Positions 1,824 to 51,100 of a DNA stretch of 64,000 bases are shown here, one piece after another. The translations under genes and the position numbers were made by a program. A model generated the notes under the pieces. That model saw only the letters and a program-made list of their open reading frames with translations. It ran no database searches and was not told the origin of the DNA. The first letter of the stretch is position 1. The number at the start of each line of letters is the position of its first letter. The stretch lies in NCBI GenBank assembly GCA_030295235.1, contig AP026138.1:496001-560000 (forward strand), given 5' to 3'. This stretch comes from Fistulifera solaris. Lineage: Eukaryota.

Positions 1824-2288
1824 GTGAATTGAGCAATAATGCACCACCAAATTGTAAAAGACTAATGCAACGATATTGCTATAATCTAATTGAATAATGG
1901 GATTGCGAGAAGAAAAGACGATGCGAGAACCACAACGAACAGTAGTATAGTCCTTCAGACCCACCGGCACTCGGCTATGTCTAGGGTCGGAACACAAAAA
2001 GTAACCGAGTACAAGTTCAAAGCGGCACTTTATGAAAGATGAGAGCATCTATTGACTATGAAAAAGTTGTTATTGACGATGTAAGCGTCTACGGATTGTA
2101 TGGCACTAAGTGACCGAAGCATCAATCTTCAACCAGTGTTATCCGGAGCGACATATGAAAAAAAGCACACGATGCCACATCAACATGCTAGCTCGCACAT
2201 CAAGATATAATTGAGTAACAAGCAGGTTATTTGGTTACATTATTAATTCATAATTTTGTCATGGGTTTTGTTGGGTCGAGTGTTCGCC

Positions 2289-3777
2289 TTAAAATTTCTT
2301 TCCTTTGCTTCCCTTGCCACTTTTTCTTTCCTTTGCTGGAAGTCTCTTCTTCGTCGTCATGACCGTGGTCGTCGTGGTCACCGTGGCCGACACCAAGCTC
2401 GCGCTTTCCCTTTCCGCTCTTGCTTCCTTTGCTTCCCTTTCCTTTGCTGGAGGCCTCTTCTACTTCCTCTTCGTCATCGTGTCCATGGTCGCGATCATGT
2501 CCGTGGCCAAGTCCGAGCTCGCGATCTCCCTTTCCACCCTTTCCGGATTTCTTGCCGGCCTTGCCTTTGCTGGAAACTTCCTCTTCGTCGTCATGTCCAT
2601 GGCCAACACCGAGTTCACGCTTTCCCTTTCCGGACTTCTTGCCGGCCTTGCCTTTGCTAGAGGCTTCTTCTTCTTCATCGTCATGTCCATGATCTCCATG
2701 TCCAACACCGAGTTCGCGCTTGCCCTTTCCGGACTTCTTTCCGGCCTTGCCCTTGCTGGAAGCCTCTTCCTCGTCATCGTGTCCGTGGTCTCCATGGCCA
2801 ACACCGAGTTCGCGTTTGCCCTTTCCGGACTTCTTGCCGGCCTTGCCTTTGCTCGAAGCTTCTTCCTCGTCGTCATGACCGTGATCATCATGGTCGCCAT
2901 GTCCAACACCGAGTTCGCGTTTGCCCTTTCCGGACTTCTTTCCGGCCTTGCCCTTGCTGGAAGCCTCTTCCTCGTCATCGTGTCCGTGGTCACCGTGGCC
3001 GACACCAAGCTCGCGCTTTCCCTTTCCGCTCTTGCTTCCTTTGCTTCCCTTTCCTTTGCTGGAGGCCTCTTCTACTTCCTCTTCGTCATCGTGTCCATGG
3101 TCGCGATCATGTCCGTGGCCAAGTCCGAGCTCGCGATCTCCCTTTCCACCCTTTCCGGATTTCTTGCCGGCCTTGCCTTTGCTGGAAACTTCCTCTTCGT
3201 CGTCATGTCCATGGCCAACACCGAGTTCACGCTTTCCCTTTCCGGACTTCTTGCCGGCCTTGCCTTTGCTAGAGGCTTCTTCCTCATCGTCATGTCCATG
3301 ATCTCCATGTCCAACACCGAGTTCGCGCTTGCCCTTTCCGGACTTCTTTCCGGCCTTGCCCTTGCTGGAAGCCTCTTCCTCGTCATCGTGTCCGTGGTCT
3401 CCATGGCCAACACCGAGTTCGCGTTTGCCCTTTCCGGACTTCTTGCCGGCCTTGCCTTTGCTCGAAGCTTCTTCCTCGTCATCGTGTCCGTGGTCTCCAT
3501 GGCCAACACCGAGTTCGCGTTTGCCTTTTCCAGACTTCTTGCCGCCCTTGCCCTTGCTGGAAGCCTCTTCCTCGTCGTCATGATGTCCATGATTACGATC
3601 ATGTCCGTGACCGAGACCCAAACGTCGGAGACCGCCAGCGTTGATAAGGACGTTTGCGTCAGCCGACTCAACTTGAGAAGCGGACAATTCGGACTTTCCA
3701 ATTGCACGGATAGATCCGCCAACAATCGCGCACATGACAAGGGCAGCGGATGCGGTTTTAGCAGCAGTGTACTTCAT
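2289..3777 (-). CDS. Secreted silaffin-like RXL polyprotein with 13 His/acidic/Lys-Ser repeats
   Basis: Hydrophobic N-terminus MKYTAAKTASAALVMCAIVGG. One RRL plus 12 REL sites, each followed by GVGHGDHGHDDEEEASSKGKAGKKSGKGK-type units with KxxK motifs. Removing one A from the run near 2321-2325 gives the repeat-like end KKSGKGSKGKKF* (stop 2289-2291); as assembled the ORF ends at 2248. Confidence 0.8.
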
Positions 3778-3854
3778 CTAAACACACAAGAGGAATTATG
3801 TTAGATACCTATGAACACCACTCATCCGATGTTACCCCGTTATAGGATGCTTAC
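3778..3854 (-). other. Probable 77-bp 5'UTR intron ending immediately before the ATG of the silaffin-like gene
   Basis: Minus strand reads AAG|GTAAGC ... pyrimidine-rich TTCCTCTTGTGTGTTTAG|ATG. Length matches other introns in the window. Confidence 0.6.
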
Positions 3855-4406
3855 CTTGTTTTTGTTGTTATGAAAGACTTCGTTCAGAGTTTCGAAGAAA
3901 AGATTTTATGGCAGATGTTGACAAAGTTCAAAAGTTGGCTCGATAGAATGAATCGTTCAAGCATTGAGCTAAAGAAATTTTTGAATGCAATAAAATTTGT
4001 TCCTACCTAGCGTTGGATTCCAATTTTTACAGGCGTCTGTCGTGTTTTCACTAGTGTTCTCATTTTTAGTACTTTAGGCCTTAGTGTTCAGTACCGGTTC
4101 GTCAACCCGGTACAATAATTATGAGCCACTCCGTTCCACTAAATTTCATCCGTTAACAAGTGGCTCTGCGACATACGTAGAAACCGTACCAGAGCAAATT
4201 TTGTTAACAAGATCTGAAAAATTGGAAGCTGGGACCATCGCCAGGATCAAAACGCATTCTTCATCCCACGTTCGAATTTGTCCATCCGCGGGACAACAAA
4301 CTACAGCTATGTGCTTCAATGAAAACCTAGATGATCTTGACTGTACACTGATGGCAACGAACACCGTATATCGTATACCTGGTAGAGAAAAACGAGTATA
4401 CTATTA

Positions 4407-5867
4407 TTAAAAGTCACCTGTGATAGCTGCTTTCTGTTCTGCTGCATCCCGCTGCTTCCGACGAATCTCTTTCATCAATGGATTCAGGAAAGAATTTTCA
4501 AACCCCTGAAAGTAATCCTTTAGACTTGTTTGCTTCCAATCCGCGGATGCGTCAAGCTTGATTAGCTCTTGTTCTAATTCAGGTAAGGTTGGCACGGTAA
4601 AGGGGTTGAACGAGTCCACATCTACAATGGGGACACAAACGCGCCCAGTCTTTGGGTGAACGCAGAATGGCGACTTCAGCAAGTGATTACGAGCTTTGGA
4701 TACATTGACATCCAGGCGAGGGTAGCCATGACGAAAAACCATTTCCACGGGCCAGTTCTCCAATCGATTTCGCTCTTTGGTTGACATATTTTTGGCGGCT
4801 TTGGCTACTCCTTTCTTGGCCGACAAGAAGGCTGACAGATGCTCTTTGATGGACTCCCACTTTTCCGCAGGGGTGGTGTTATTGAATTTAGATGATGTCC
4901 AGTGAGGGAGAAGTTTCTCGCGAACAGGTGCGGCGGCTTCAGGCAATTCATCTAAAAAGGCTTGACAATTCTCCGGTGTAGCCAAAAGACCGTGTCCGGT
5001 TGCCGGTAGAACTTGTTCAACAAACATGGGTTCCAACAGTTCATAGGCCCGAGCTAACATGGGATGGAGTGGATTGGCAAGTTGAACTTCCTTGTTATTC
5101 TCCGAGCCAAGATTAACCTTTTCACGATCACCAAAGTATCAAAATAAAGATTAGCAACAAAATTAGCAGCTTTTTGTATATTACAACACGACTTACCTCA
5201 AAATACCCCGCAATGGCATGTCGCGCTTCGTCCGTCAGAGATTTCGCTACTTCATCGCACACCCACGCGTGCACACCACGTCGTCCGGAGTAAAACCAAG
5301 CAATGTGTTCAAAGCCAAAATCTTCGCGCAATGCCTGATCCATGACTTTTACGGCCATGGGCATGAAGCCCCAGCAAACGCGACAAATCTGCGCTCCCGT
5401 GCAGCCGCACTTGCGGACGCCATCGTAATCGGTCAAATCGACATCAAAGACGAGTTCGCGCAGTTCGGGTTTCAGTTGCCCCGATTGCAACGTATCTTTT
5501 TCTTTCGGTGAATGCGAGAATACAGCGCCGATATCGATCTTTTGGGGCAGCGCTTGACAATGGCTTGTGCCAATTCTTCCTGGGTTGTGAAACTTTGGTA
5601 ACGAATGTAGATTTCCTCGTCGGGAACGGGTTCGATTGTGAACGAAAACTCGCGCTTGGAAAAGATCGAAGTGTTACTTCCGTAGCTGAGCCAGTCGTAC
5701 AACAAGGAAAACGGAAAGAGTCGAGAATAATACATTTTCAAGAGTTCCGGAGTGCATGTCGCCGCTTTCGAGGCGGGGGCCGGAGATACGACGGCCGCTT
5801 CGACCGAAGCCGTATTTGGTGCGTCCTCATCCTCGGCAAAGGATGTTTCTAATTCCATTTCGGTCAT
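4407..5867 (-). CDS. PRIM1: DNA primase small (catalytic) subunit; intron 5118-5196; 1-nt frameshift near 5540
   Basis: Motifs YYSRLFPF, KREFSFT, (K)IDIGAVFS after restoring one A, RELVFDVDLTDY, YSGRRGVHAWVCD, YPRLDVNVSK, HLLKSPFCVHPKTGRVCVP. The GT-AG intron joins the exons in frame. Confidence 0.95.
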
Positions 5868-6019
5868 GATTCGTGAACGATAGAATTTTATTTTAACAAA
5901 AAGTAACAAGTGGAAACAGAGTAACCGCAACACTCTTCGGACTTGTCATTTTTGTGCGAAGAATGAAACTCTCGCGTGCATTTCGCACTTCGCACCGACT
6001 TTTTTCTCCACCGTGTAGC

Positions 6020-6079
6020 GCGGGAAAGCGCGTGCCGGCGCCGAATTCAAATTGCAGATAGCCAACGAAACGCGCGAAA
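6020..6079 (-). promoter_or_regulatory. Two E2F consensus sites upstream of PRIM1
   Basis: Minus-strand TTTCCCGC (6020-6027) and TTTCGCGC (6072-6079) match TTTSSCGC, 150-210 bp upstream of a DNA replication gene. Confidence 0.5.
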
Positions 6080-6381
6080 TGATTACTGTCAACTGGAATG
6101 TAGATTACCTTTTCATTCCCTGTCTCACGTGACTCCTCCTCGGGGTTGACACCCGCAGAAGGATGAATAGTTAGAAAGATGCCAACAACATTATAGTATC
6201 TTTTATCAACAATAAATAGACCCATCGTGCAGCATCGTACTAGTACAACCAAGTTAACGTTCATTACAAGCAGACCTGCATCATTTTTCGCAAAAATCCT
6301 GTCCTATCTCTATGAATTTGCAAGAACATCATTGGACTCCTTGTATGATAAAGGCCTCGGAATGCAAATAGTTCGTCCGCT

Positions 6382-6947
6382 TCACCCCTCAAATACGCTG
6401 AATCTGAATTTTATTATTGTAAATTGCATGACAAGGCACGACTTTAAATGAGAAACCTCGAATCCTTCAAGTTCATAGAAGATACACAAGAACGGCACAT
6501 CGCTGTAAAGTACTTTTGTAAACAAAACACAGAACGACTCGTGCGCCCTTAGCGCTGGCCTTGTCTCATGAGATCCAAACGAAACATTCGCGACAGTGGA
6601 ATTCCCGTTTCCACGCAAAAGTTGACAATCTCCGAATAAGATTGAGCTCCACTTTGTTGAATCATCTGTCGACGGAAGTGTCAGAGGAAAAAGCATTCCG
6701 ATCGACAGCTCGTTCCAGTCGCACATACCTCTATCAAAACATCATCTTGTGAAAGCAGCGATGATTCCGATAATGGTGTCTCTACTTCCATGGCGTTATT
6801 TCTAGAGGCATCACGCCTTCGTTTGACAGCCGGATACTCGGCCATTTCGTCGTCCGAGACCGCCCGAGGAATGCCGATGCTCGACATCGGCGATACGTCC
6901 CTGCTCGCATTTTTGAACTGTCGGTTTATCATATCATTGCTGGACAT
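6382..6947 (-). CDS. Hypothetical protein (frameshifted; ends uncertain)
   Basis: Overlapping ORFs 6681-7061 and 6382-6726 join at a homopolymer run. NLS-like VKRRR. No family recognised. Confidence 0.3.
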
Positions 6948-7613
6948 GCTATTATTGGTGCAAGAAGGTATATTGTAGCAGTTGAAGAAGAAGAGTGACA
7001 CGGATACGGCGGAATTTTTCGCAGAACTGCGCGGAAGATCGGAAAAACGCCGCCGATGCAAAAATTGGCGAAGTGACCGAAAACCGAACTCAAATTTCAG
7101 TACTGGGAGACACGGGAACGCACCTCTGCTTGGTACATTTTTCTACGGGGGCCTACGTGAGTGTACACTTTTTCCCGAACCTTCCTGTAGGTAACTACAC
7201 TCGCGGTGTGACGTACATGCCCGCGTTAAAGAAACGATGTCTTGCGTATTTACTATAGATCGAAGTGTTGTCCGTATTCGCCACGACTGGACTTCAGCCA
7301 TGAATCAAATTCTTTTGAGCGACAATGTTACCTCCAATTGGTTCGTTTAGCGAATTTACTTGAGCTCCATTTGTCGTTGTTACAATCCAACAGTCTTAGC
7401 ATCGTTTTGATTACACGACATTATACTTTACATCGAAGAGCTTTGCAAAACGTTGTCTTTTCTTAATTCACTATAGACCAAAGTGTGGATTCAAGGGAAC
7501 CGTGACTGCATTTCAGTCATGAGGCCGTTAGTCCGAGCCAGATTGTCAGCTCACCCACATTTTCCTTTTTCTACTGTCTTATAATACAAAAGGCTATAAC
7601 GTAGGTTTGAAAT

Positions 7614-23282: not shown

Positions 23283-26200
23283 ATGACAGAAGAGAGCGAC
23301 TCTAGCAAGCCCCCGTCTCGCTGGGGTAACCTTGTTAGCTTGTTTAGCCCGGGAGCCTCTAAACAAAAAACTATTCCAGAATTATCGCGAAAGCCTTCGA
23401 CTGAGAACGGGGAACTGCGCCTTCATGGCACTGGTGAACCTACCCCGAAACGCCGACACATGAACCCCAAATACAACCTTCAACCGAGCCATTGGAATTC
23501 CCCGGCAGTGAATCAGAGCCTTATTCAGAGTAAAACGGAGGAAAGTGGTGGTTCAAAACCTTCTACGAGTCTCATTGCTCCTCGTGATTCTGCCGCAAAG
23601 AGTGAACAAAAACCCTTACCGTCATCCACACCGGGCCGTCGAATTGTGCGAGCAAGACATACTCCGAGTAGATTCCTTTCAGCAGATATCAAAATCAATA
23701 ACTCGGCTTTAATAGCGGGAGAGAGGAAGCTATGGAAGGATCTTTCCGAGAAAACCAGTTTTGCAAAACCCAGATCGGACGACGCGAAGCACGTAGGATT
23801 CGTACAAGGGCAAATTATGCCGGAAGCCAACCGTCTTTACAAGAAACGCGTGATGATCAAAAGGCCCCATCTCACGGAGCCCGATGAAAGCAAAGACGAA
23901 AGTGCATCTAGTCCAACATCTCCCAAGTCTAAACGAACACGTGTTTCATTCAATGCAGACGCTTTTTACGGCCGTGAAAGAGACGATCATTCTCGAGCGC
24001 CCAATGTTGATTATGGCAGTCGGAGTACCCACGAGTCAGATGGGAGATCATTCATCGAAACTGAGGTGCCATTGAAGTCCATTTCTACCTATCCCATTGT
24101 TCTTCGTGAATATAAAGGCTATCGAGATAACAGAGTTGCAGTGTATGGTGATCCGATGGATGATTACAAGGAGATCAAGAAAGCAGCTTCTGCTGCACCG
24201 AAACCAGTTGCCCCAGAAGACGAATCCCCGCCGTGGGAATGTAAGAAATGCAAACATATGAATCCAAACGACGAGTCGTTGTGTGTCAAATGCAAAGATC
24301 CCCGGTCGCATAAAACAGACGCTGAAGGCTGGGGAGATTTGTTCGCGGAACAAAAAGATAAGTGGAAATGTAGTGGTTGTTCCCTCTATAACAACAAGGA
24401 TGCCGTCAAATGTGTGGCATGCGAAGCAGAGAAACCGGGTGGATCCAGTTCCAGTGTCAATGGCGATGCTAGCAGTAGCACAAAGGCGACAGGCTTTGCC
24501 AGTGAGACTACCGCAAAAACATCAGGCCCCGTTGGCACGCCGTTTACCTTCGGCTCCGAGGGATCAAAAGTTACAGAGGCCAAGACCGCACCAGCTAAGT
24601 TTACCTTTGGCGCACCATCGACGGAAGCCACTACAGCATCAGGGTCGCAGCCCTTTGCTTTCGGAAACGTTTCGTCGGAGGCAGCAAATAAAACTCCATC
24701 AATTTCTTTTGGAAGTACTTCAGTACCAGCCAACGCTACTCCATCGAAGCCGCCGTCATTTTCATTCGGTAGCGCTCCCGCGTCATCTGAGACGTCATCA
24801 AAGACCCCGTCGTTTTCTTTTGGTAATGCTGCGGTTCCATCTGACTCTTCATCGAAGACCCCGTCGTTTTCATTCGGTCAGGCTGCCGCCCCATCTGAAG
24901 CTTCATCGAAGCCTCCGTCGTTCTCATTCGGTCAATCTGCTGCCCCATCCGAACCTCAATCGAAGTCTGAAGATGATGAAACGTCAACACCCCCTTTGGC
25001 TAATTTCGGTGGTACATCTACAACGACAGAATCTTTGGCAAAACCGTTTTCTTTCGGAGGCACTTCCGCTACGTCTGAAACTACGGAAAAATCAGTAAAG
25101 TTTGATGGCAGTTTAGACACCAAAGAGACGTCCAATAACATGCCGTTCGGCGCCAGCTCAATCAATGCGGACACCCCAGCAAAATCATTCACTTTCGGTA
25201 AGATTTCGTCCACATCAGACACTCCGGCAGATTCTCTCTCTTTTGGCGGTGCTGGTTACTCCGTCGCATCGGAATCTTCCCAGAAGCCTTCATTTTCGTT
25301 CAGTCCTGCAGCTCCATCGGCATTTTCAAGTATTCCTCCCAAGGATTCAAGTGATGAAAACAAGTTAGATTTGAATGAGAAAGAAAGCTTGAACGTAGTA
25401 GCCCCATCGCCGGCCCCTTTTGTATTTGGAAGTAGCCAAGCTGGTAACGCTCAGGCTGCCGATACAGCAAGCTTTGGACAGAATAGCACCTTGGTTGCCG
25501 CGCCACAGCTAACTCAGCAAGGAGATACCCAGCCTTTTAAGCTTGGCGCCGCAACAGAAGCCCAGGAAGACGGTGATTCCTCTAGAAAAAGACTAAACAA
25601 TCATTTGGCTTCAGTGGCGGCAACAATTCAACTTCGTTATCGGAAGATTCCAACGCATTTGGTTCGGCGGCACCGTCAATGTTTGGCCAAGATAAAGACA
25701 ACGCCTTATCAGGGAACGGGTCGTTTGCTGGCCCTGGCAATGCGAGTGAGACAAACTCATCAGGGTTTGTATTCGGTGCCAGCCAAACATCATTAACGTC
25801 GAATACAAAAGCCTTAGAGACTCCCGCTAGCTTTGGTCAGCCTTTTGGAACGTCATCTACGTTCAGTGGTGGTTTCGGAGCGACGTCTGTCCAAAGTGAT
25901 ACAAATACCGCTGTTGGTAACAACGTCCCTAATTTTGGGACGAGTGTATCTACCTCAAACGGCTTTGGGACATCTTCCAATTCATCAACATTTGGCAACG
26001 CTGCTCAAGCTCCAGCGACATTCGGAGCACCCGCACCACCTGCATTCGGAACGTCTACTCCGGCTTTCGGCGCGCCTACCGCATTTGGCGCAGCCCCAAC
26101 TCCCGCTTTTGGCAATCCTGCATCTGCACCTGCTAACACGGCCCCAATATTTGGTGCAGCTCCCACTCCATCATCTTCAGCACCAGCATTTGGAAATCCT

Positions 26201-26530
26201 ACTTTTGGTGCTCCGAATCCTTTTAATTCCACTGCGTCAAATCAAACGGCGTTCGGGATGAATCCTGCTCCAGCACCCGCGGCTCCGACTTTTGGCGGCT
26301 TCAATCCGGCTCCTGCCTTTGGTCAGACTGGACAAGCTCCCGGCTTTGGCGCACCAGCAGTTTCATCTTCTTTCGGACAACCTCCCCAACAGCAACCATC
26401 TTTTGGTGCCCCTCAGGGTTTTGGGGGACAAGCACCTTCGTTCGGTGCTGGTGCAGCCGATGGTGGTTTCAGCTTGGGATCAGGGGGTGCGGCTCCGAAA
26501 AGGAGAATCGTTCGAGCGCGTCGCAAATAA
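23283..26530 (+). CDS. FG nucleoporin, Nup153/Nup1-like, with two RanBP2-type zinc fingers (frameshift ~25590)
   Basis: WECKKCKHMN...CVKC and WKCSGCSLYN...CVAC fingers. Many FSFG/FTFG/PAFG repeats. C-terminal GFSLG...KRRIVRARRK. Confidence 0.85.
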
Positions 26531-37203: not shown

Positions 37204-39114
37204 CGGTGTCCACAATTTCTGGAACGTGCAAAGCATTTTGGTAGGCTCGAAAAACTGGTCCAGAATTTCTGAATTTCTGTATGATCAGAAATAACGTATT
37301 CAGAATATCTGGAACATGCCCCTTCTTTCGTTATGATCAAAACCTGGTTTCCAAAATTTCTGGTAAGCGCACATTCTTTCGTCATGATCCAAAACACCCT
37401 GTCCACAATTTTTGGGACGTGCACAGCATTTTGGTAGGATCGAAAAATTGGTCCAGAATTTCTGGACCACCATAGAATTTCTGTATGAGCAGCAATAACT
37501 TGTCCAGAATATCTGGAACATGCCCCTTCTTTCGTTATGATCAAAACCTGGTTTCCAGAATTTCTGGTAAGCGCACATTCTTTCGTCATGATCCAAAACA
37601 CCCTGTCCATTAATTTTTGGGACGTGCACAGCACTTTGGTAGGATCGAAAAACTGGTCCAGAATTTCTGGACCACCACAGAATTTCTGTATGAGCAGCAA
37701 TAACTTATCCAGAATATCTGGAACATGCCCTTTCTTTCGTTATGATCAAAACCAGGTTTCCAAAATTTCTGGAACGCGCACATTCTTTCGTCATGATCCA
37801 AATCACCGTGTCCACAATTTTTGGGACGTGCACAGCACTTTGGTAGGATCGAAAAATTGGTCCAGAATTTCTGGACCACCACAGAATTTCTGTATGAGCA
37901 GCAATAACTTATCCAGAATCTCTGGAACATGCCCTTTCTTTCGTTATGATCAAAACCTGGTTTCCAGAATTTCTGGTAAGCGCACATTCTTTCGTCATGA
38001 TCCAAAACACCCTGTCCACAATTTTTGGGACGTGCACAGCACTTTGGTAGGATCGAAAAAACTGGTCCAGAATTTCTGGACCACCACAGAATTTCTGTAT
38101 GAGCAGCAATAACTTATCCAGAATCTCTGGAACATGCCCCTTCTTTCGTTATGATCAAAACCTGGTTTCCAAAATTTCTGGTAAGCGCACATTCTTTCGT
38201 CATGATCCAAAACACCCTGTCCACAATTTTTGGGACGTGCACAGCACTTTGGTAGGATCGAAAAACTGGTCCAGAATTTCTGGACCACCACAGAATTTCT
38301 GTATGAGCAGCAATAACTTGTCCAGAATATCTGGAACATGCCCCTTCTTTCGTTATGATCAAAACCTGGTTTCCAAAATTTCTGGTAAGCGCACATTCTT
38401 TCGTCATGATCCAAAACACCCTGTCCACAATTTTTGGGACGTGCACAGCACTTTGGTAGGATCGAAAAAACTGGTCCAGAATTTCTGGACCACCACAGAA
38501 TTTCTGTATGAGCAGCAATAACTTATCCAGAATCTCTGGAACATGCCCTTTCTTTCGTTATGATCAAAACCTGGTTTCCAAAATTTCTGGTAAGCGCACA
38601 TTCTTTCGTCATGATCCAAATCACCGTGTCCATTAATTTTTGGGACGTGCACAGCACTTTGGTAGGATCGAAAAACTGGTCCAGAATTTCTGGACCACCA
38701 CAGAATTTCTGTATGAGCAGCAATAACTTATCCAGAATATCTGGAACATGCCCTTTCTTTCGTTATGATCAAAACCTGGTTTCCAAAATTTCTGGAACGC
38801 GCTCTTTCTTTCGTCATGATCCAAAACACCATGTCCACAATTTTTGGGACGTGCACAGCACTTTGGTAGGATCGAAAAAACTGGTCCAGAATTTCTGGAC
38901 CACCACAGAATTTCTGTATGAGCAGCAATAACTTATCCAGAATATCTGGAACATGCCCTTTCTTTCGTTATGATCAAAACCTGGTTTCCAAAATTTCTGG
39001 AACGCGCTCTTTCTTTCGTCATGATCCAAAACACCGTGTCCATGATTTCTGGAACATTCCCAGAATTTCTGGACCACCACAGAATTTCTGTATGATCAGA
39101 ATTTCTGGAACCGG
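37204..39114. repeat. Tandem array of ~9.3 units of 204-205 bp, bounded by imperfect inverted ends and TA dinucleotides
   Basis: Marker GTATGAGCAGC at 37483, 37688, 37892, 38097, 38301, 38506, 38711 and 38916; variant GTATGATCAG at 37279 and 39090. TA at 37202-37203 and 39115-39116. Confidence 0.95.
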
Positions 39115-45116: not shown

Positions 45117-48100
45117 ATGCAAGGCGATCGATATCCTGCAACACCCATGGCTTTGAAGCCACCGCAGTCTCCCGTGAGCGTCGACTCCTCGAGAGCCTCG
45201 GGGCCCACCGCTGGCTTCCATACGGCAAAACCTCGCTCGGCGAACCGTTTTAAGCTACCGCCGGGAAGAGGTGTGCCCACTACGAGTCGAAACACACCCT
45301 CTCCGTTGCCGGTTTCGCATGCTCCGAGTTCAATGAAACCACGATTCGCGACCCCTCAAACCTCGCACGTGATTTCGCGCAGCCGGAGCAATTCCATTAC
45401 CAGCACTTCTTCTTCGATAGGTGGCGGTTGGTCGAAGCAAATTGATTCAGCTTCCGGCAAAGTCTATTATTTTCATGCCGAAAAGGGTATTACTCAATGG
45501 GACGCACCGGTCGACGTTTCTCAACCGTTGCCAGCTGTCGTTGCCGTCGATTCTTTGGTGGAATCACATGGAACGCTGGTAGTACAACAACAGGAACCCG
45601 AAACGAGTTCGAACACTGTTGTTGAGATGCAAGGATGGCAACAGCTCACGGATCAGGCGTCTGGAAAGCCTTACTATTACAATGCTGCGACAGGCGAATC
45701 GCGATGGGAGAAGCCTGTACAACTCGACACATTAGAGAATGACAGGCAGCACATGGGTGAGCAGACATCAGGTATCATCGATCCGCCTACCACTTCTGTA
45801 GAAGTCAGTGAGCGAAGCGACATTGCTGAGTATCAACAGGATTTCGAAGTTCCTTCCGAAGGGATTCTACCAACGGAAGTAGAATGCGCGCAGCAAATCG
45901 CCATTCCTGAGGAGTCACATGGAACAGTCGTAGAGCAAAGTCAATCATTGGTACAATCTAATTCGGGCAGCGCTGATGAGATGCAAGGATGGCAACAGCT
46001 CACGGATGAAGCTTCTGGGCTGCCTTATTATTACAATGCCGTGACAGGCGAATCGCAATGGGAGAAGCCTTTGCAACTTGACATACCCGACAACGATACG
46101 ACATACCCCAATGAGCCAATTTCTGATGCCATGGATCAGCCTACCGCTGCTGCAGAAGTCAGTGAGCGAAGCGACGCTGCTGAGCTTTTGTCAACTGACA
46201 TGGAAGTAGAAACCTCACCGCAACTGATTACTTCCGAGTCACAGGGAACGATCGTCGAACAAAATGATACTTTGCCACAAAAAAGTTCGGACAGTGTCGA
46301 TGAGAAGCAAGGATGGCAACAGCTTACGGATAAAGCTTCTGGTAAGCTGTATTATTACAATGCCGCGACAGGCGAGTCGCAATGGGAGAAGCCTTTGCAA
46401 CTCGATAATTTGGAGAGTGAACAGCAACACGCCAATGAACCAACTTCTGATGTCTTGGACCAGCCTCAAACTGCTGTAGAGTTCGGTGAACGAAGCGAAA
46501 CCCCCGAGAATCAATATGACGTTCCGAATGATCTGAATAATAGTCCCGAGGACGCGCATCCAATGGCAATGCCTTCAACTGTGACGTTGGAGGATGAAGA
46601 TTTGGTAGCTAGGGGCACAAACGAGTTTACCGATGATCTTCCCAAAGGATGGCGAACTGCCACAGATCCTTCCGCGGGAACATATTATCTCAATGGAATG
46701 ACTGGAGAGACAAGCTGGGAATTTCCAAAGGCCGCGGAAAGTTCACGAGGCGAAGAACTTACTGACACACCGACGAATCCGGTTCTACCTGAGGGGTGGA
46801 CACAAATTGTGGATCCTACTTCCGGTAGTTGCTATTTTTACAACGAAGAGACAGGTGAAACTTCATGGGATTTTCCAGCGTCAGGGATCAGTAATGGTAT
46901 TATTTCACAAGAGAAAGATTCAATTGAAAATGACGTAATACATTTTGAAAACGATGATGTGAATTCTGTTCTTTCTGGCAGTCAAAAACCCCATACGCAA
47001 GACGACGATGGATTAGTCATAGAAGAGAAAGATGATACAGGCAGAGTTATTCCTCCTGGTTGGGCTAAAGTAGAGGACGAGACGACTTTGGAAACCTATT
47101 TCTACAACGAAATAACCGGCGAGACCGCGTGGACGTTACCTTCTGAAAATGTTCCTGTCAACGACGAGCTTCAAGCTGCTTTAGATTCCATCACAAACGA
47201 GACTTTAGATGAAGCTAGCGGACCGCTAGCTGATGGTTGGAGTAGAAAGATTGACCAATCGTCCGGCCAGGTATACTATTGTAATGATATTACTGGCGAA
47301 AGTTCTTGGAATGCGCCTCCTGTAGCTGCGATGACACTGGAAGGCGAAACCTGCGCCATGGATAATGACGAGCCTTCTACAGACGACCGAGTGGACACTG
47401 ATGCACACGACGTCCGCCTTTCCTCGGAGCATCAGAACATACAGGAAACCTCGGACACTATGAACGTTCAGGCATCGTCTACAGAAAAGGAAATAGCGGG
47501 TATCGCTACTTCCGTCATTGAGAGCACGCAACTGCCAATCCGGTATTGACGACCGACCACGAAACCCACAATTTTCATGATCCGTCATCTGATATTGATT
47601 GCTGGGAAAAGTTAAAAGATGAGTCGACGGGTAACCATTATTATTTAAACACAGCCACAGGGGAAGCTACATGGGATCCCCCCTGAGAGGATGAGCAAGA
47701 ACATGAGCGAAGGTGAAAGCGCTGGCAACTCTGAAAATGTCGAGATTGAACCTACACAAAAACCAGGAATAGACAATAGCCCCTCTTTGATGGAAAATGA
47801 AAGTTTTCCATTTGCACCACCTCTCACGCTTCAATCTTCGGAAATAACAACAAGCGCTCATCCTCTGCCAGCGGGCTGGGAGATGTTGATTGATCCGGGG
47901 TCTGGAGACTCCTATTACTATAATGAGGAACGAGGAGAAACATCATGGGAACTACCAATCGCTACGCGGGAAGAACTTACTTTTCCTGCAAATGAGACTT
48001 TGTTGAATTCGGGTAGTTTTGCCAAACCAGACTCAACTGAGCCAGAATGCAGTTTGTCGCTTGCTGCTGGTTGGGTATCAGTAGAGGATCCTTCATCGGG

Positions 48101-51100
48101 TGATGTTTACTTCTACAACAAGCAAACTGGAGAGACTTCGTGGGAACCACCAAGCGGGACAGAGAGGCCAGTGGTTACAGCGACCGGCGATGAAGCCTCT
48201 CAAACATCGTTTGATAAAAGGAGCCGTCTCACGTTCATGATTCATCTGGAGAGTTGCGTCTTAGTGGAGAAATGGAAGACCTCCCACACGGTCGTCGGAG
48301 CGATAGCCAAGTGCTTAACGAGCCTGAAATCGGTAGAGTTTATGATGGTGATGCTACTTATTCCACAGTTTCGGCTTCTTCGACGAAGAAAGAAACGTCC
48401 ACATCGCACCACATCGACTCGAGGCAGACAAATTCAATCTCAAGTGACAGACAGAAAGAAAAAGATGAAAGCAACGTCAAAAAGTATTACTCGAGGAAGA
48501 ACTCCAGCGTAATGCGAATGGCGTAGAATTTTCAACTCTGAATGAAGCCAGTAGCGAAGGTGTGGTGAACGACAGAAATCTATCTGTGGTTACTAAGACT
48601 GTTACATCCTCCAATACAGAGGTTGAGTTGAACAAAACTAGCCAATCACAAGTCATTTTGCCGCCATTACATGGTTGGGAACAAATTGTAGATGAGTCTT
48701 CTGGTAATGCTTATTTTTTAAACAAAAACACGGGCGAAACATCTTGGGAACTCCCCGTTGTGCTGACTTCGACAGATGGTTCAGTACAGCCGGGTCGTGA
48801 TCTTCGAAATCCATCTACAAGTGGCGATAGTCTACCTTCAGGATGGGAGAAGCTATTCGATACGACGTCTGGAAGACCTTATTATTACAATAGCGTGCAA
48901 AATACAACGTCCTGGGATCCTCCTTCCGACTCGAGTGATGACTGGATAAAGGTTGCTCATCCTACACCGTCCGAATCATCAGCTGAATCATTGAAGTCGG
49001 CCCGAGATAGTCATCTAGTGGGAAGACGCGGACCAGTCGCTTGTTTTGGATTTGGCGGCCGTGTGTGCGTCTCGAACAGTCCACCAGGCACGATCGCGGT
49101 TCATAGTGTGTCATCGTTATTGACATCGCACGTTATCATGGTTACTGAACGTACGAAGCGAGAAGCTGGTTTTTCAGGTCCCTTGATTGCGACAGAGAAT
49201 CAGAATGTAATGGCTTATTTCGAAAGAAAAGCTCAGAAACAGTCCGATTTGATATGGAACCTTTGTCTAATTGCCTCGCACTCTAGGGGGGTGCCTCCGT
49301 AGCGACGACAGGGTAAATGAATTGAACAGACCGGAGCCTGCTATAGTCGATCTTCTTTTAACTAATACGAACGAGAACGAAACCTCGGAGGCTGAAGTAC
49401 TTGTGGAAAAACAAATGGTCACAAATTTCAATGGTTTGGAAGAAATTCAGTTTCTTCTTTTGCAAGGGAAAAGAGAGGAAGCAATAGAATGCGCTTTGGC
49501 AAATGAACAATTTGCGCTTGCTTTTCTCGTGGCCAGCATGTGCAGTAGAGCGACATATTTTGAAGTTGCGAAAAGTTACACGGAGAGCGTTCTCTGCAAA
49601 GGCTCCCCCTTGCATACTGCTGCTGAGTTATTTTGTTCAGAGCTTCAGATCCCCGAATTGAGGATGGGCGTAAACCCGGCAATATGGAGTGATAACAATA
49701 TCAACTTGAAACATACATGGAAGAAACATCTCGCAGCAATTATCAGCAATCGAACTGCTGGATGGGATGATTTAGCTATAGCTCTCGGTGACCGTCTCAA
49801 AGAACTCGGTGAAGTCGTACCTGCCCATGTCTGTTACATGGTGTGCGGATGTTCTTTTTCACCCCCTGCCCGTAAGAATGCGAAATTCAGTCTATTGGGG
49901 TGCGAAGTCGACGTCGCTGAGTTGCTTCTCTTGACGAATGACTCTGTGGAGTCATTTTGCCGAGCTGAAGCGTATGAGTGGGCGAAACGACGTGGCAATA
50001 GAAATGCAGCTATTCAATGCATTCAAGGGTTCAAACTTCAATACGCACTCCTTTTAAGTGACCTAGGGCTTGTTGAAGAAGCCAAGATGTACATCGCGAG
50101 CATAAAGGAATGTCTTGATTTCAACGAAGCAATGGACTTGAAACGAGAAAGTTTGCACCCTTTAACAGTTTCCATTATGACAGCTGACCGCCCGGGAATT
50201 TTGCATCAAGTTCTTGAACTTGAATCTCGATACGCTGGAACGTCTGTTTATAATCTGAAAATCAGAGAGGGTTTTTACAGAGACAGTTTGTCGGTTACTC
50301 ACGATGCATCCCCCGAACCCGCAACAAGAAATTTGACAGTTGATGGACGCAAAAAGTAAATGATGAAACGAAGAAGCGTTTGTCGTCGCCGGCTATGCTT
50401 CGGAAGAATCTGCACGAGGAAGACGGAAGTCTCGATAAGGTTTCAACAAGTAAGGAAACTTTATCCAAGGTGCAACCTCCGCTACCATCTATAACCAACG
50501 CTACAACAAAGAAGACGTCAGACAAGTCGGCTAATGTCACCAAGAACGAAAAGTTTATACCTCCTACGCTCGCCACACCCGAACGAACGACTATTGATGA
50601 TAAGCCACATCTGTCAGATCACGCGGAGACTAGCAAGAGAAAGATTTCAAAGCCAGAACAGGCACCTCGATCAGCGCCACCCAACTTGCAGTCACCTAGT
50701 TTTGGTAAGCAGCTGTCCGTTCTCTCATTCGCTTAGTATTGTCTTTTAGGATATCGCGACTAACAATTCGTTTTCGGAAAGGTTTTATGAACAAAATAAA
50801 GGATCGCATCATAAAGTGGCAAAATCCCGACGCTCATATTGCTAATCCAGGAGAAGAAATGCAAGCTTATTATGACAAAGAAAGAAAAGTATGGGTCTTC
50901 CCGGGCGAAGATCCTGACGAAGTGGCGAAGCCTATAGGACCACCACCTTCAATGTCCACGCCGTCAGCAAATCAAGCTCCTCCGCCGCCAAGTAATGATC
51001 CACTTGCGGCGATGATGGCCCCACCGCAGCGTGCTCCGTCTGCTTTACGTGGACGGCCTCCTTTAACGCCGTCTCCTGCATCTCTACCACCATACACACC

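Follow-up and report, generated by a model that had tools for sequence, protein, structure and literature searches.

A 13-unit R-x-L polyprotein gene in the pennate diatom Fistulifera solaris, a candidate silaffin-1-type precursor of biosilica peptides

Introduction

Pennate diatoms have so far yielded few silica-forming peptides, and a repeat-bearing gene of Fistulifera solaris raises the question of whether it encodes a precursor of such peptides. The gene lies in a 64,000-nucleotide stretch of contig AP026138.1 (assembly GCA_030295235.1, positions 496,001 to 560,000), here called the window. Sil1p of Cylindrotheca fusiformis is cut into peptides that lose RRIL or RRNL, and repeats also end in RXL in frustulins, cingulins and silacidins (PMC4557024). 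In Sin1 and other biosilica proteins, an RXL domain likewise follows the signal peptide (PMC5525289). The RXL protease is still unidentified (PMC4557024, PMC5525289), RXL processing has been judged unproven (PMC5647440), and motifs similar to RXL are reportedly cleaved in secreted proteins of oomycetes and apicomplexans. The silica deposition vesicle is acidic (PMC5525289), and silaffin R5, when unmodified, shows no activity below pH 6 (PMC4557024).

Results

A secreted precursor in which R-x-L closes each unit

From the ATG at 3777, the minus-strand frame runs through a hydrophobic N-terminus and a 28-residue pro-region closed by RRL into 13 units, which are bounded in the translated frame by one RRL (residues 51-53) and 12 REL (Table 1). 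An earlier note on this DNA, made from the letters alone, had described this short pro-region, the RRL with 12 REL and the 13 units, all of which were recovered from the translation. The signal peptide that it predicted agrees with family conservation (see below) and with hydropathy: Kyte-Doolittle means over 11 residues were highest (2.5) at residues 9-19, while every window past residue 55 was at or below -0.65, with no second hydrophobic segment. The product is a secreted, fully hydrophilic polyprotein with an R-x-L closing each unit. The first 485 residues, upstream of a frame break, hold 13 R-x-L motifs against a mean of 0.74 and a maximum of 5 in 10,000 shuffles, a test that overstates the significance because repeats are not independent, so that the family comparison is the better evidence. 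Beyond residue 50, R-x-L accounts for 13 of 16 Leu and 13 of 17 Arg.

Each unit opens with G-V/L-G-H-G and continues with a stretch of His, Asp and Gly, a run of Asp/Glu and a closing Ser-Ser-Lys-Gly tail. This is the block pattern given in the earlier note, present here in units that vary: the cores measure 29-37 residues, and three complete units start with GLGHG. All 12 complete units contain exactly six Lys and two or three KxxK, and the protein has 15 matches to [KS]G[KS]G. Gly-Lys-Arg stands at ten of the 12 REL sites; in two units Gly-Asp precedes REL, which leaves these sites without a dibasic pair. Ser is absent from the acidic block and makes up 3 of 29 residues in the unit (3-5 per unit). 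The units contain neither Tyr nor Trp, the single Tyr being in the signal peptide and the lone Trp in the frame-shifted tail (see below). His and Asp together account for 90 of the 509 residues (17.7%) of the protein as assembled. The tandem array was detected by TRF at 2537-3582 with a period of 96.

Lys plus Arg minus acids equals zero in seven of the 12 complete window units (range +1 to -2) and in 14 of the 18 units of the homeolog. Balanced window units pair Lys and Asp/Glu at 6:6 and contain two to five His per unit, and because Lys and Asp/Glu cancel, the net charge is set by His. The computed charge of the commonest 29-mer (2.9 kDa) is -0.8 at pH 8, 0.0 at pH 7 and +2.6 at pH 5.5, a curve that holds for the unmodified peptide only and would move with phosphorylation, polyamines or removal of the last Lys.

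Table 1 Features of the precursor gene in the window.
Feature	Positions	Strand	Basis
5' untranslated exon	3855..3888 (upper end approximate)	-	X4 contig, 26 letters past joint 3862; donor site in window sequence
77-nt GT..AG intron abutting ATG	3778..3854	-	Sequence; X4 joint; GT..AG stretch in 10/10 family genes
Predicted ER signal peptide, residues 1 to ~21-25	3703..3777	-	Hydropathy; family conservation; cleavage site inferred
Pro-region ending RRL, 'RXL domain' arrangement	3619..3702	-	Translation; likeness to Sin1 and other biosilica proteins
Unit 1, 33-residue core + REL	3511..3618	-	Translation
Units 2-7, five 29-residue cores and one 37-residue core, each + REL	2911..3510	-	Translation; TRF
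Units 8-12	2395..2910	-	Translation; 9, 11, 12 DNA-identical to 3, 5, 6
Unit 13 + TAA (2289-2291), last residues Gly-Lys-Lys-Phe	2289..2394	-	Translation; run contigs
Five-T run with one extra base	2321..2325	.	X1, X2, X3 contigs; homeolog
Probable 3' untranslated region	2238..2288	-	X3 contig end, weak hint, one study

Stop codon, splicing and transcript

As assembled, the frame continues past 2289 to 2248 and yields 509 amino acids. Contigs of three public runs (X1, X2 and X3) omit one T of the five-T run, where the fourth (X4) has no cover, and the homeolog terminates in the alternative frame, which is intact across the corresponding site. The extra T is an assembly error that shifts the frame within unit 13. 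Because the T is omitted in the X1-X3 contigs and the homeolog uses the alternative frame, the TAA is the true stop and the protein has 495 amino acids. The earlier note had correctly ended the gene at 2289, which the assembled frame overshoots through the extra T; the assembled 24-residue C-terminal tail, including its RTL, was discarded as an artefact of this base on the evidence of the run contigs. The number of 13 units rests on the assembly, as no single run contig spans the array. A 499-residue hydrophobic frame on the plus strand (2305-3804) was rejected as a mirror image of the repeat, since it runs across the intron and the synonymous variation tracks the minus-strand frame. Single-base assembly errors are also likely at 2158, where X1 and X2 omit the base, and at 4407-5933, where a primase small-subunit gene is spread over several frames.

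The X4 contig joins 3779 to 3862 with two letters between them and shows 13 differences from the window over 3566-3779, which makes it of homeolog type. The joint fits the intron plus a 3-nt difference between the homeologs and so matches removal of the 77-nt intron. A spliced transcript of homeolog type exists. The earlier note had named the lack of a transcript as evidence against its reading, and it is this X4 contig, from a run classed as RNA by guess, that speaks to the point. X2 and X3 were classed as RNA by guess as well, none of the runs with this sequence being recorded as RNA; X2 covers the intron and flanks in a DNA-like manner, and X3 and X4 belong to one study. Cover in X3 and X4 is confined to 2238 to about 3888, while X1 and X2 extend into the flanks; correspondingly, the X3 contig ends at 2238 without a loose end and X1 and X2 continue beyond. 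Both junctions downstream of the long unit are present in run contigs (X4, 2962-3265; X3, 2238-2653), so the block duplication in the array is real, and units 9, 11 and 12 stem from this recent event.

Homeolog and gene family

The genome (51.7 Mb, 62 contigs) is organized in paired contigs, and contig C24 carries a syntenic copy of the locus with 82% DNA identity across about 4.9 kb. This homeolog encodes 649 residues with one RRL, 17 REL and 18 units. Between the homeologs, the prepro region (53 codons) shows seven synonymous versus one non-synonymous change. The 32-codon units give a pS of 0.43 versus a pN of 0.017 over 70 unit pairs, which are not independent and combine five of the 12 window with 14 of the 17 homeolog REL-closed units, picked for equal length and start. 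Synonymous codons differ at the R-x-L positions (four Arg and five Leu codons). Judged by these codon comparisons, the gene pair is under strong purifying selection. The neighbouring genes (PA-RING ligase, FG-GAP protein, primase, Obg GTPase) are uninformative on function.

Searches of the genome itself revealed at least ten related genes in five homeologous pairs. One pair consists of the window gene (contig C23) and its C24 homeolog; contigs C3 and C4 each carry two tandem polyproteins, with 6 and 9 and with 7 and 12 long units, and C40 and C41 two single-unit genes each. The second C3 polyprotein gene has frame breaks in the signal region. The signal peptide is conserved in all nine aligned family proteins, with M1, K2, Y3, L13 and A17 invariant. 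A GT..AG stretch ends directly at the ATG in all ten genes, and an intron abutting the start codon, at 3778-3854 in the window, is conserved in the nine paralogues. The family shares a HDRDHGH-type His block, an acidic hinge and an S-S-(G)-K-G-K tail. The 99 family R-x-L sites were chosen by the pattern, so what counts is that each boundary carries one; their middle residue is D (32), E (29), S (19), N (11), T (4), R (2) or L (2). In the C3/C4 genes, four-residue acidic spacers are flanked by pairs of sites, for example RSL-EEEE-RDL. Gly-Lys-(Arg/Lys)-X-stop terminates all ten genes and Gly-Lys-Arg occurs at 56 of 59 tail-end sites, which suggests that all family peptides would be trimmed to one common C-terminus.

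The 'A' units of the C3/C4 genes hold 12 Lys plus Arg against seven acids, with the EEEE spacers separate, and are not charge-balanced. Because these paralogues are unbalanced and a diverged relative, P0002 (see below), lacks the acidic block, the pH switch would be specific to the C23/C24 pair. The long C40/C41 single-unit paralogues reach 26-30% Ser and 30-31% Lys, above published Ser/Lys thresholds, and are the two among 12 family or cassette-bearing proteins that pass this composition screen.

Further secreted and membrane proteins with similar elements were noted in the genome. A C3/C4 pair (L043:1393-1815 and L044:1390-1809, both on the minus strand) encodes predicted secreted proteins of 140 residues with two R-x-L, His and Asp blocks and KGG repeats, in which Pfam recognized no family. 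On C38 and C39 (L081:2173-4218, plus strand, and L082), a 681-residue type-I membrane protein combines a signal peptide and five R-x-L with PSD(V/M) repeats, a domain of six Cys, a transmembrane helix and a short tail, and carries the cassette in its lumenal part ahead of an RKL site. Its layout resembles that of the silicalemma proteins SAP and Sin1, but homology was not found. A tandem neighbour has the Cys domain and lacks the His/acid/Lys-Gly cassette.

Relatives outside the genome

Two relatives were found outside the genome, P0001 and P0002 (source labels 'ncbi' and 'lgn'). P0001 is a 73-residue piece of the C24-type N-terminus. P0002, from a Logan contig, is a 78-residue single-unit protein (E 2.9e-4), 38% identical to the first query row, with an RVL, a His block and a Lys tail, in which a Pro-Thr stretch replaces the acidic block. 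Two matches occurred among the 8000 near-length candidates listed and one in 1.84 billion representatives. The whole window protein gave none at E<=0.001 among the 8000 candidates listed, and the profile of alignment A2 none among the 7997 longer ones listed. A described silaffin was likewise not matched in these protein searches, in which about 8000 candidates were listed each and low-complexity queries weaken the detection of homology. Pfam assigned no family to the window protein, and its matches in paralogues were weak or composition-driven; two ESM Atlas queries returned no usable match, a PDB sequence search nothing significant, and an exact look-up in protein clusters none of seven proteins. 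Metagenome scans gave 597 pattern matches of which none was confirmed, one His-motif match being an unrelated His-rich tail from a bacterium, read on the other strand. The earlier note had been unable to name a family, in agreement with the Pfam, protein and ESM Atlas searches. In public protein sets the gene is present only as the 73-residue fragment, so proteomic searches would miss it.

In the literature covered, largely papers outside subscription and exclusive of silicome supplements, neither the window protein nor any His-rich diatom silaffin is described; it included PMC5501833, PMC10328945, PMC9650480, PMC5649158 and PMC11151724.

Comparison with silaffin features

The window protein shows several silaffin-type features: an N-terminal signal peptide (by hydropathy), RXL after the pro-region and per repeat, and clustered KxxK. 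Silica proteomes are enriched in GKA.K, SKS.K and KSGK, plain K..K being enriched three-fold only, and two K..K within 10 residues confer partial silica targeting (bioRxiv 10.1101/2021.09.18.460806). GKA.K occurs nine times in the window protein, KSGK 12 times and SKS.K twice. The pattern of two K..K within 10 residues matched 13 times and a stricter K[SG][SG]K pair (PMC5501833) twice. The best 100 residues reached 12.6% Ser and 17.5% Lys and thus failed a screen for at least 18% Ser and 10% Lys per 100 residues (PMC3478156). The pentalysine pattern K..K..K.{1,2}K..K, which is found in only 29% of silica-proteome proteins (bioRxiv 10.1101/2021.09.18.460806), had no match, whereas a looser form with five non-adjacent Lys in 12-14 residues matched in four windows. 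The silaffin-like block of the earlier note therefore stands as to KxxK variants and RXL layout, but not as to Ser content and pentalysine. We take the window gene to work like a silaffin-1 precursor and do not file it as a silaffin, two published screen features being absent.

From the same genus, G7408 is frustule-localised (PMC4712521); it and the Ser/Lys-screen proteins of Fistulifera were compared by description, without the G7408 sequence. The words G7408, silaffin and RXL were absent from the available supplement text of PMC4712521. The Ser/Lys proteins of that screen could include the long C40/C41 paralogues. Nemoto 2014 is said to give an 'XGXG' motif for G7408, and its screen reportedly used an 18% Ser threshold, by which the window protein would have been missed and the long C40/C41 paralogues would pass.

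Discussion

We lean somewhat towards the view that the window gene encodes a silaffin-1-type precursor of cell-wall (biosilica) peptides that assemble in a pH-dependent manner and promote silica formation; we infer the steps from cleavage to the silica role. The precursor would be imported into the ER, cut after each R-x-L and, with spacer trimming as in Sil1p, released as 13 peptides of about 3 kDa starting G-V/L-G-H-G. Two KxxK per tail would direct these peptides to the silica deposition vesicle, and their Lys may be methylated or polyaminated and their Ser phosphorylated. As Lys cancels Asp/Glu, two to five His would set a net charge of about 0 at pH 7 and +2.6 at pH 5.5. Such a block polyampholyte would alter its self-association in the acidic vesicle, where the His/Asp block may promote the condensation of silica, much as glassin's HD domain does. 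This silica reading is favoured by a layout that matches Sil1p and other RXL precursors, by KxxK variants that match silica proteomes, by purifying selection, by the spliced transcript, by a ten-gene family with R-x-L and a shared C-terminus and by the two long single-unit paralogues above the Ser/Lys thresholds. KG repeats also occur in the pennate wall protein AC3362 (PMC4220933). Against it stand the failed Ser screen and pentalysine pattern, the unbalanced paralogues, P0002 with its missing acidic block and the lack of a His-rich diatom silaffin in the literature covered.

Among known systems, Sil1p shares with the window protein a signal peptide with RXL behind it, tandem RXL-closed units, KxxK Lys clusters with Ser and Gly, and the predicted release of short peptides (PMC4557024). 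The window units differ in their added His/Asp and Asp/Glu blocks, in having about 10% Ser and in being neutral when unmodified, whereas Sil1p has strongly basic repeats and carries its acidic part apart from them, in an N-terminal domain; the likeness is one of layout, and the searches listed no homologous match. Silacidins of Thalassiosira pseudonana similarly derive from a repetitive RXL precursor and are peptides of about 2.9 kDa with Asp/Glu runs, but are wholly anionic phosphoserine peptides whose homologues, in the available text of these sources, are reported from centric species only (PMC4557024, PMC11733937, PMC5649158). The acidic block of the window units is Ser-free and offset by six Lys. 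The 'silacidin-like' block of the earlier note is thus apt in charge and not in Ser, which is missing from the block and makes up 3 of 29 residues per unit; identity with silacidins was rejected, since the units are charge-balanced rather than wholly acidic and the acidic run lacks Ser. Cingulin identity was rejected for want of the KxxK/Trp-Tyr alternation (PMC4557024).

Glassin of hexactinellid sponges likewise has tandem His/Asp repeats, and its HD domain is crucial for silica formation; as described, it has neither Lys tail nor RXL, which leaves an analogy only (PMC10772126, PMC11733937). Identity with glassin was discarded, as the window protein has no Pro-rich or His/Thr domain and contains 17.7% His plus Asp versus more than 30%. 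Siliplant1 (Slp1) of sorghum is secreted, precipitates silica and combines repeats of His/Asp and Lys-/acid-rich blocks with RXL; unlike the window protein, it contains 20% Pro and three RXL in seven repeats and is a plant protein without homology (bioRxiv 10.1101/518332). The earlier note had proposed a zwitterionic biosilica peptide outside the named families it could match: the units are indeed charge-balanced, but silaffins are already zwitterionic, and the combination of His/Asp, Lys and RXL has been published for Slp1.

A block polyampholyte with a His switch might also be stored in an acidic secretory vesicle, where it would be soluble and cationic, and condense at seawater pH 8 with His-metal cross-links. 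The peptides would then form coacervates for an organic wall layer, mucilage or an adhesive trail and have no role in silica, which we consider unlikely. Coacervation of zwitterionic KG-repeat proteins has been proposed for adhesion in the pennate Amphora, but the one such protein localised there is a biosilica-associated wall component (PMC4220933). Low Ser and the absent pentalysine pattern would suit coacervates, whereas silica proteomes share these specific KxxK variants and the units lack Tyr and Trp. Quite unlikely, in our view, are multi-copy secreted metal-binding, defence or signal peptides, in which His would chelate Zn, Cu, Ni or Fe, the cationic tail would bind membranes or polyanions and the acids would neutralise the precursor. 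The His block is retained in the diverged P0002, and Arg/His-rich paralogues have free acidic spacers, as is reminiscent of antimicrobial precursors; moreover, the tail-end sites and C-termini with Gly-Lys-Arg/Lys carry a textbook amidation signal. The window peptide, however, is neutral at pH 7-8 without a hydrophobic face, and two REL sites lack the dibasic pair. PF01082 matched all three candidates in the genome, each with an upstream DOMON (Pfam-checked at two of the three loci, the third being the homeolog of one of them), and these are not of the amidating type; a non-exhaustive genome search revealed no PHM type. Within this search, an amidated, PAM-dependent precursor was set aside despite its Gly-Lys-Arg ends.

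We regard it as very improbable that cutting is limited to the first RRL, which would remove the pro-peptide, or is partial, to leave a long disordered wall scaffold in which the internal REL are passengers of tandem duplication. Single-unit paralogues are consistent with a repeat that arose by duplicating a single-unit gene including its RXL, any motif would recur in homogenised units, and silaffins show alternative processing (PMC4557024). Yet paralogues retain R and L at each boundary while the middle residue differs, the C3/C4 sites are paired around acidic spacers, and the codons at R-x-L positions vary synonymously.

A broader form of the silica reading is conceivable, though we hold it to be doubtful: an undescribed pennate-diatom biosilica family whose sequence itself encodes what silaffin-1 owes to modification, with an exactly balanced acid/Lys polyampholyte and a His/Asp switch for assembly and condensation at vesicle pH, convergent with glassin, whose cassette is reused in single peptides, spacer polyproteins and a type-I membrane protein. 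If true, the toolkit would be modular, and each chain would supply 13-18 clean substrates in the search for the RXL protease. The precursor is in any case a good substrate for that enzyme. A 29-residue peptide with a His-set charge would be cheap to synthesise and would show whether a His/Asp block can stand in for polyamine modification at vesicle pH. It also bears on a possible convergence of diatoms, sponges and grasses on His/Asp chemistry.

Other features of the window and genome

The copper type II monooxygenases encoded at the PF01082 loci (L101:2568-4164, L102 and L103:4011-6088) are MOXD1/DBH-like, carry DOMON and have a hydrophobic C-terminus; in T. pseudonana, silicon induces DOMON proteins (PMC5501833). 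A repeat-like stretch also lies at L102 ~5850-6970. The window itself contains a tandem array at 37271-39042 with a 205-bp unit, 8.7 copies, 96% matches and stops in six frames, which is probably a satellite. An FG-repeat protein with a RanBP2-type zinc finger, Nup153-like, is encoded in two frames at 23283-26530 (plus strand). At 45117-50359 (plus strand), many WW domains (eight matched stretches in the first frame) are followed by a Sec16 Sec23-binding domain; the frames probably belong to a single Sec16-like gene that has an unusually long WW array and is interrupted by introns or assembly errors.
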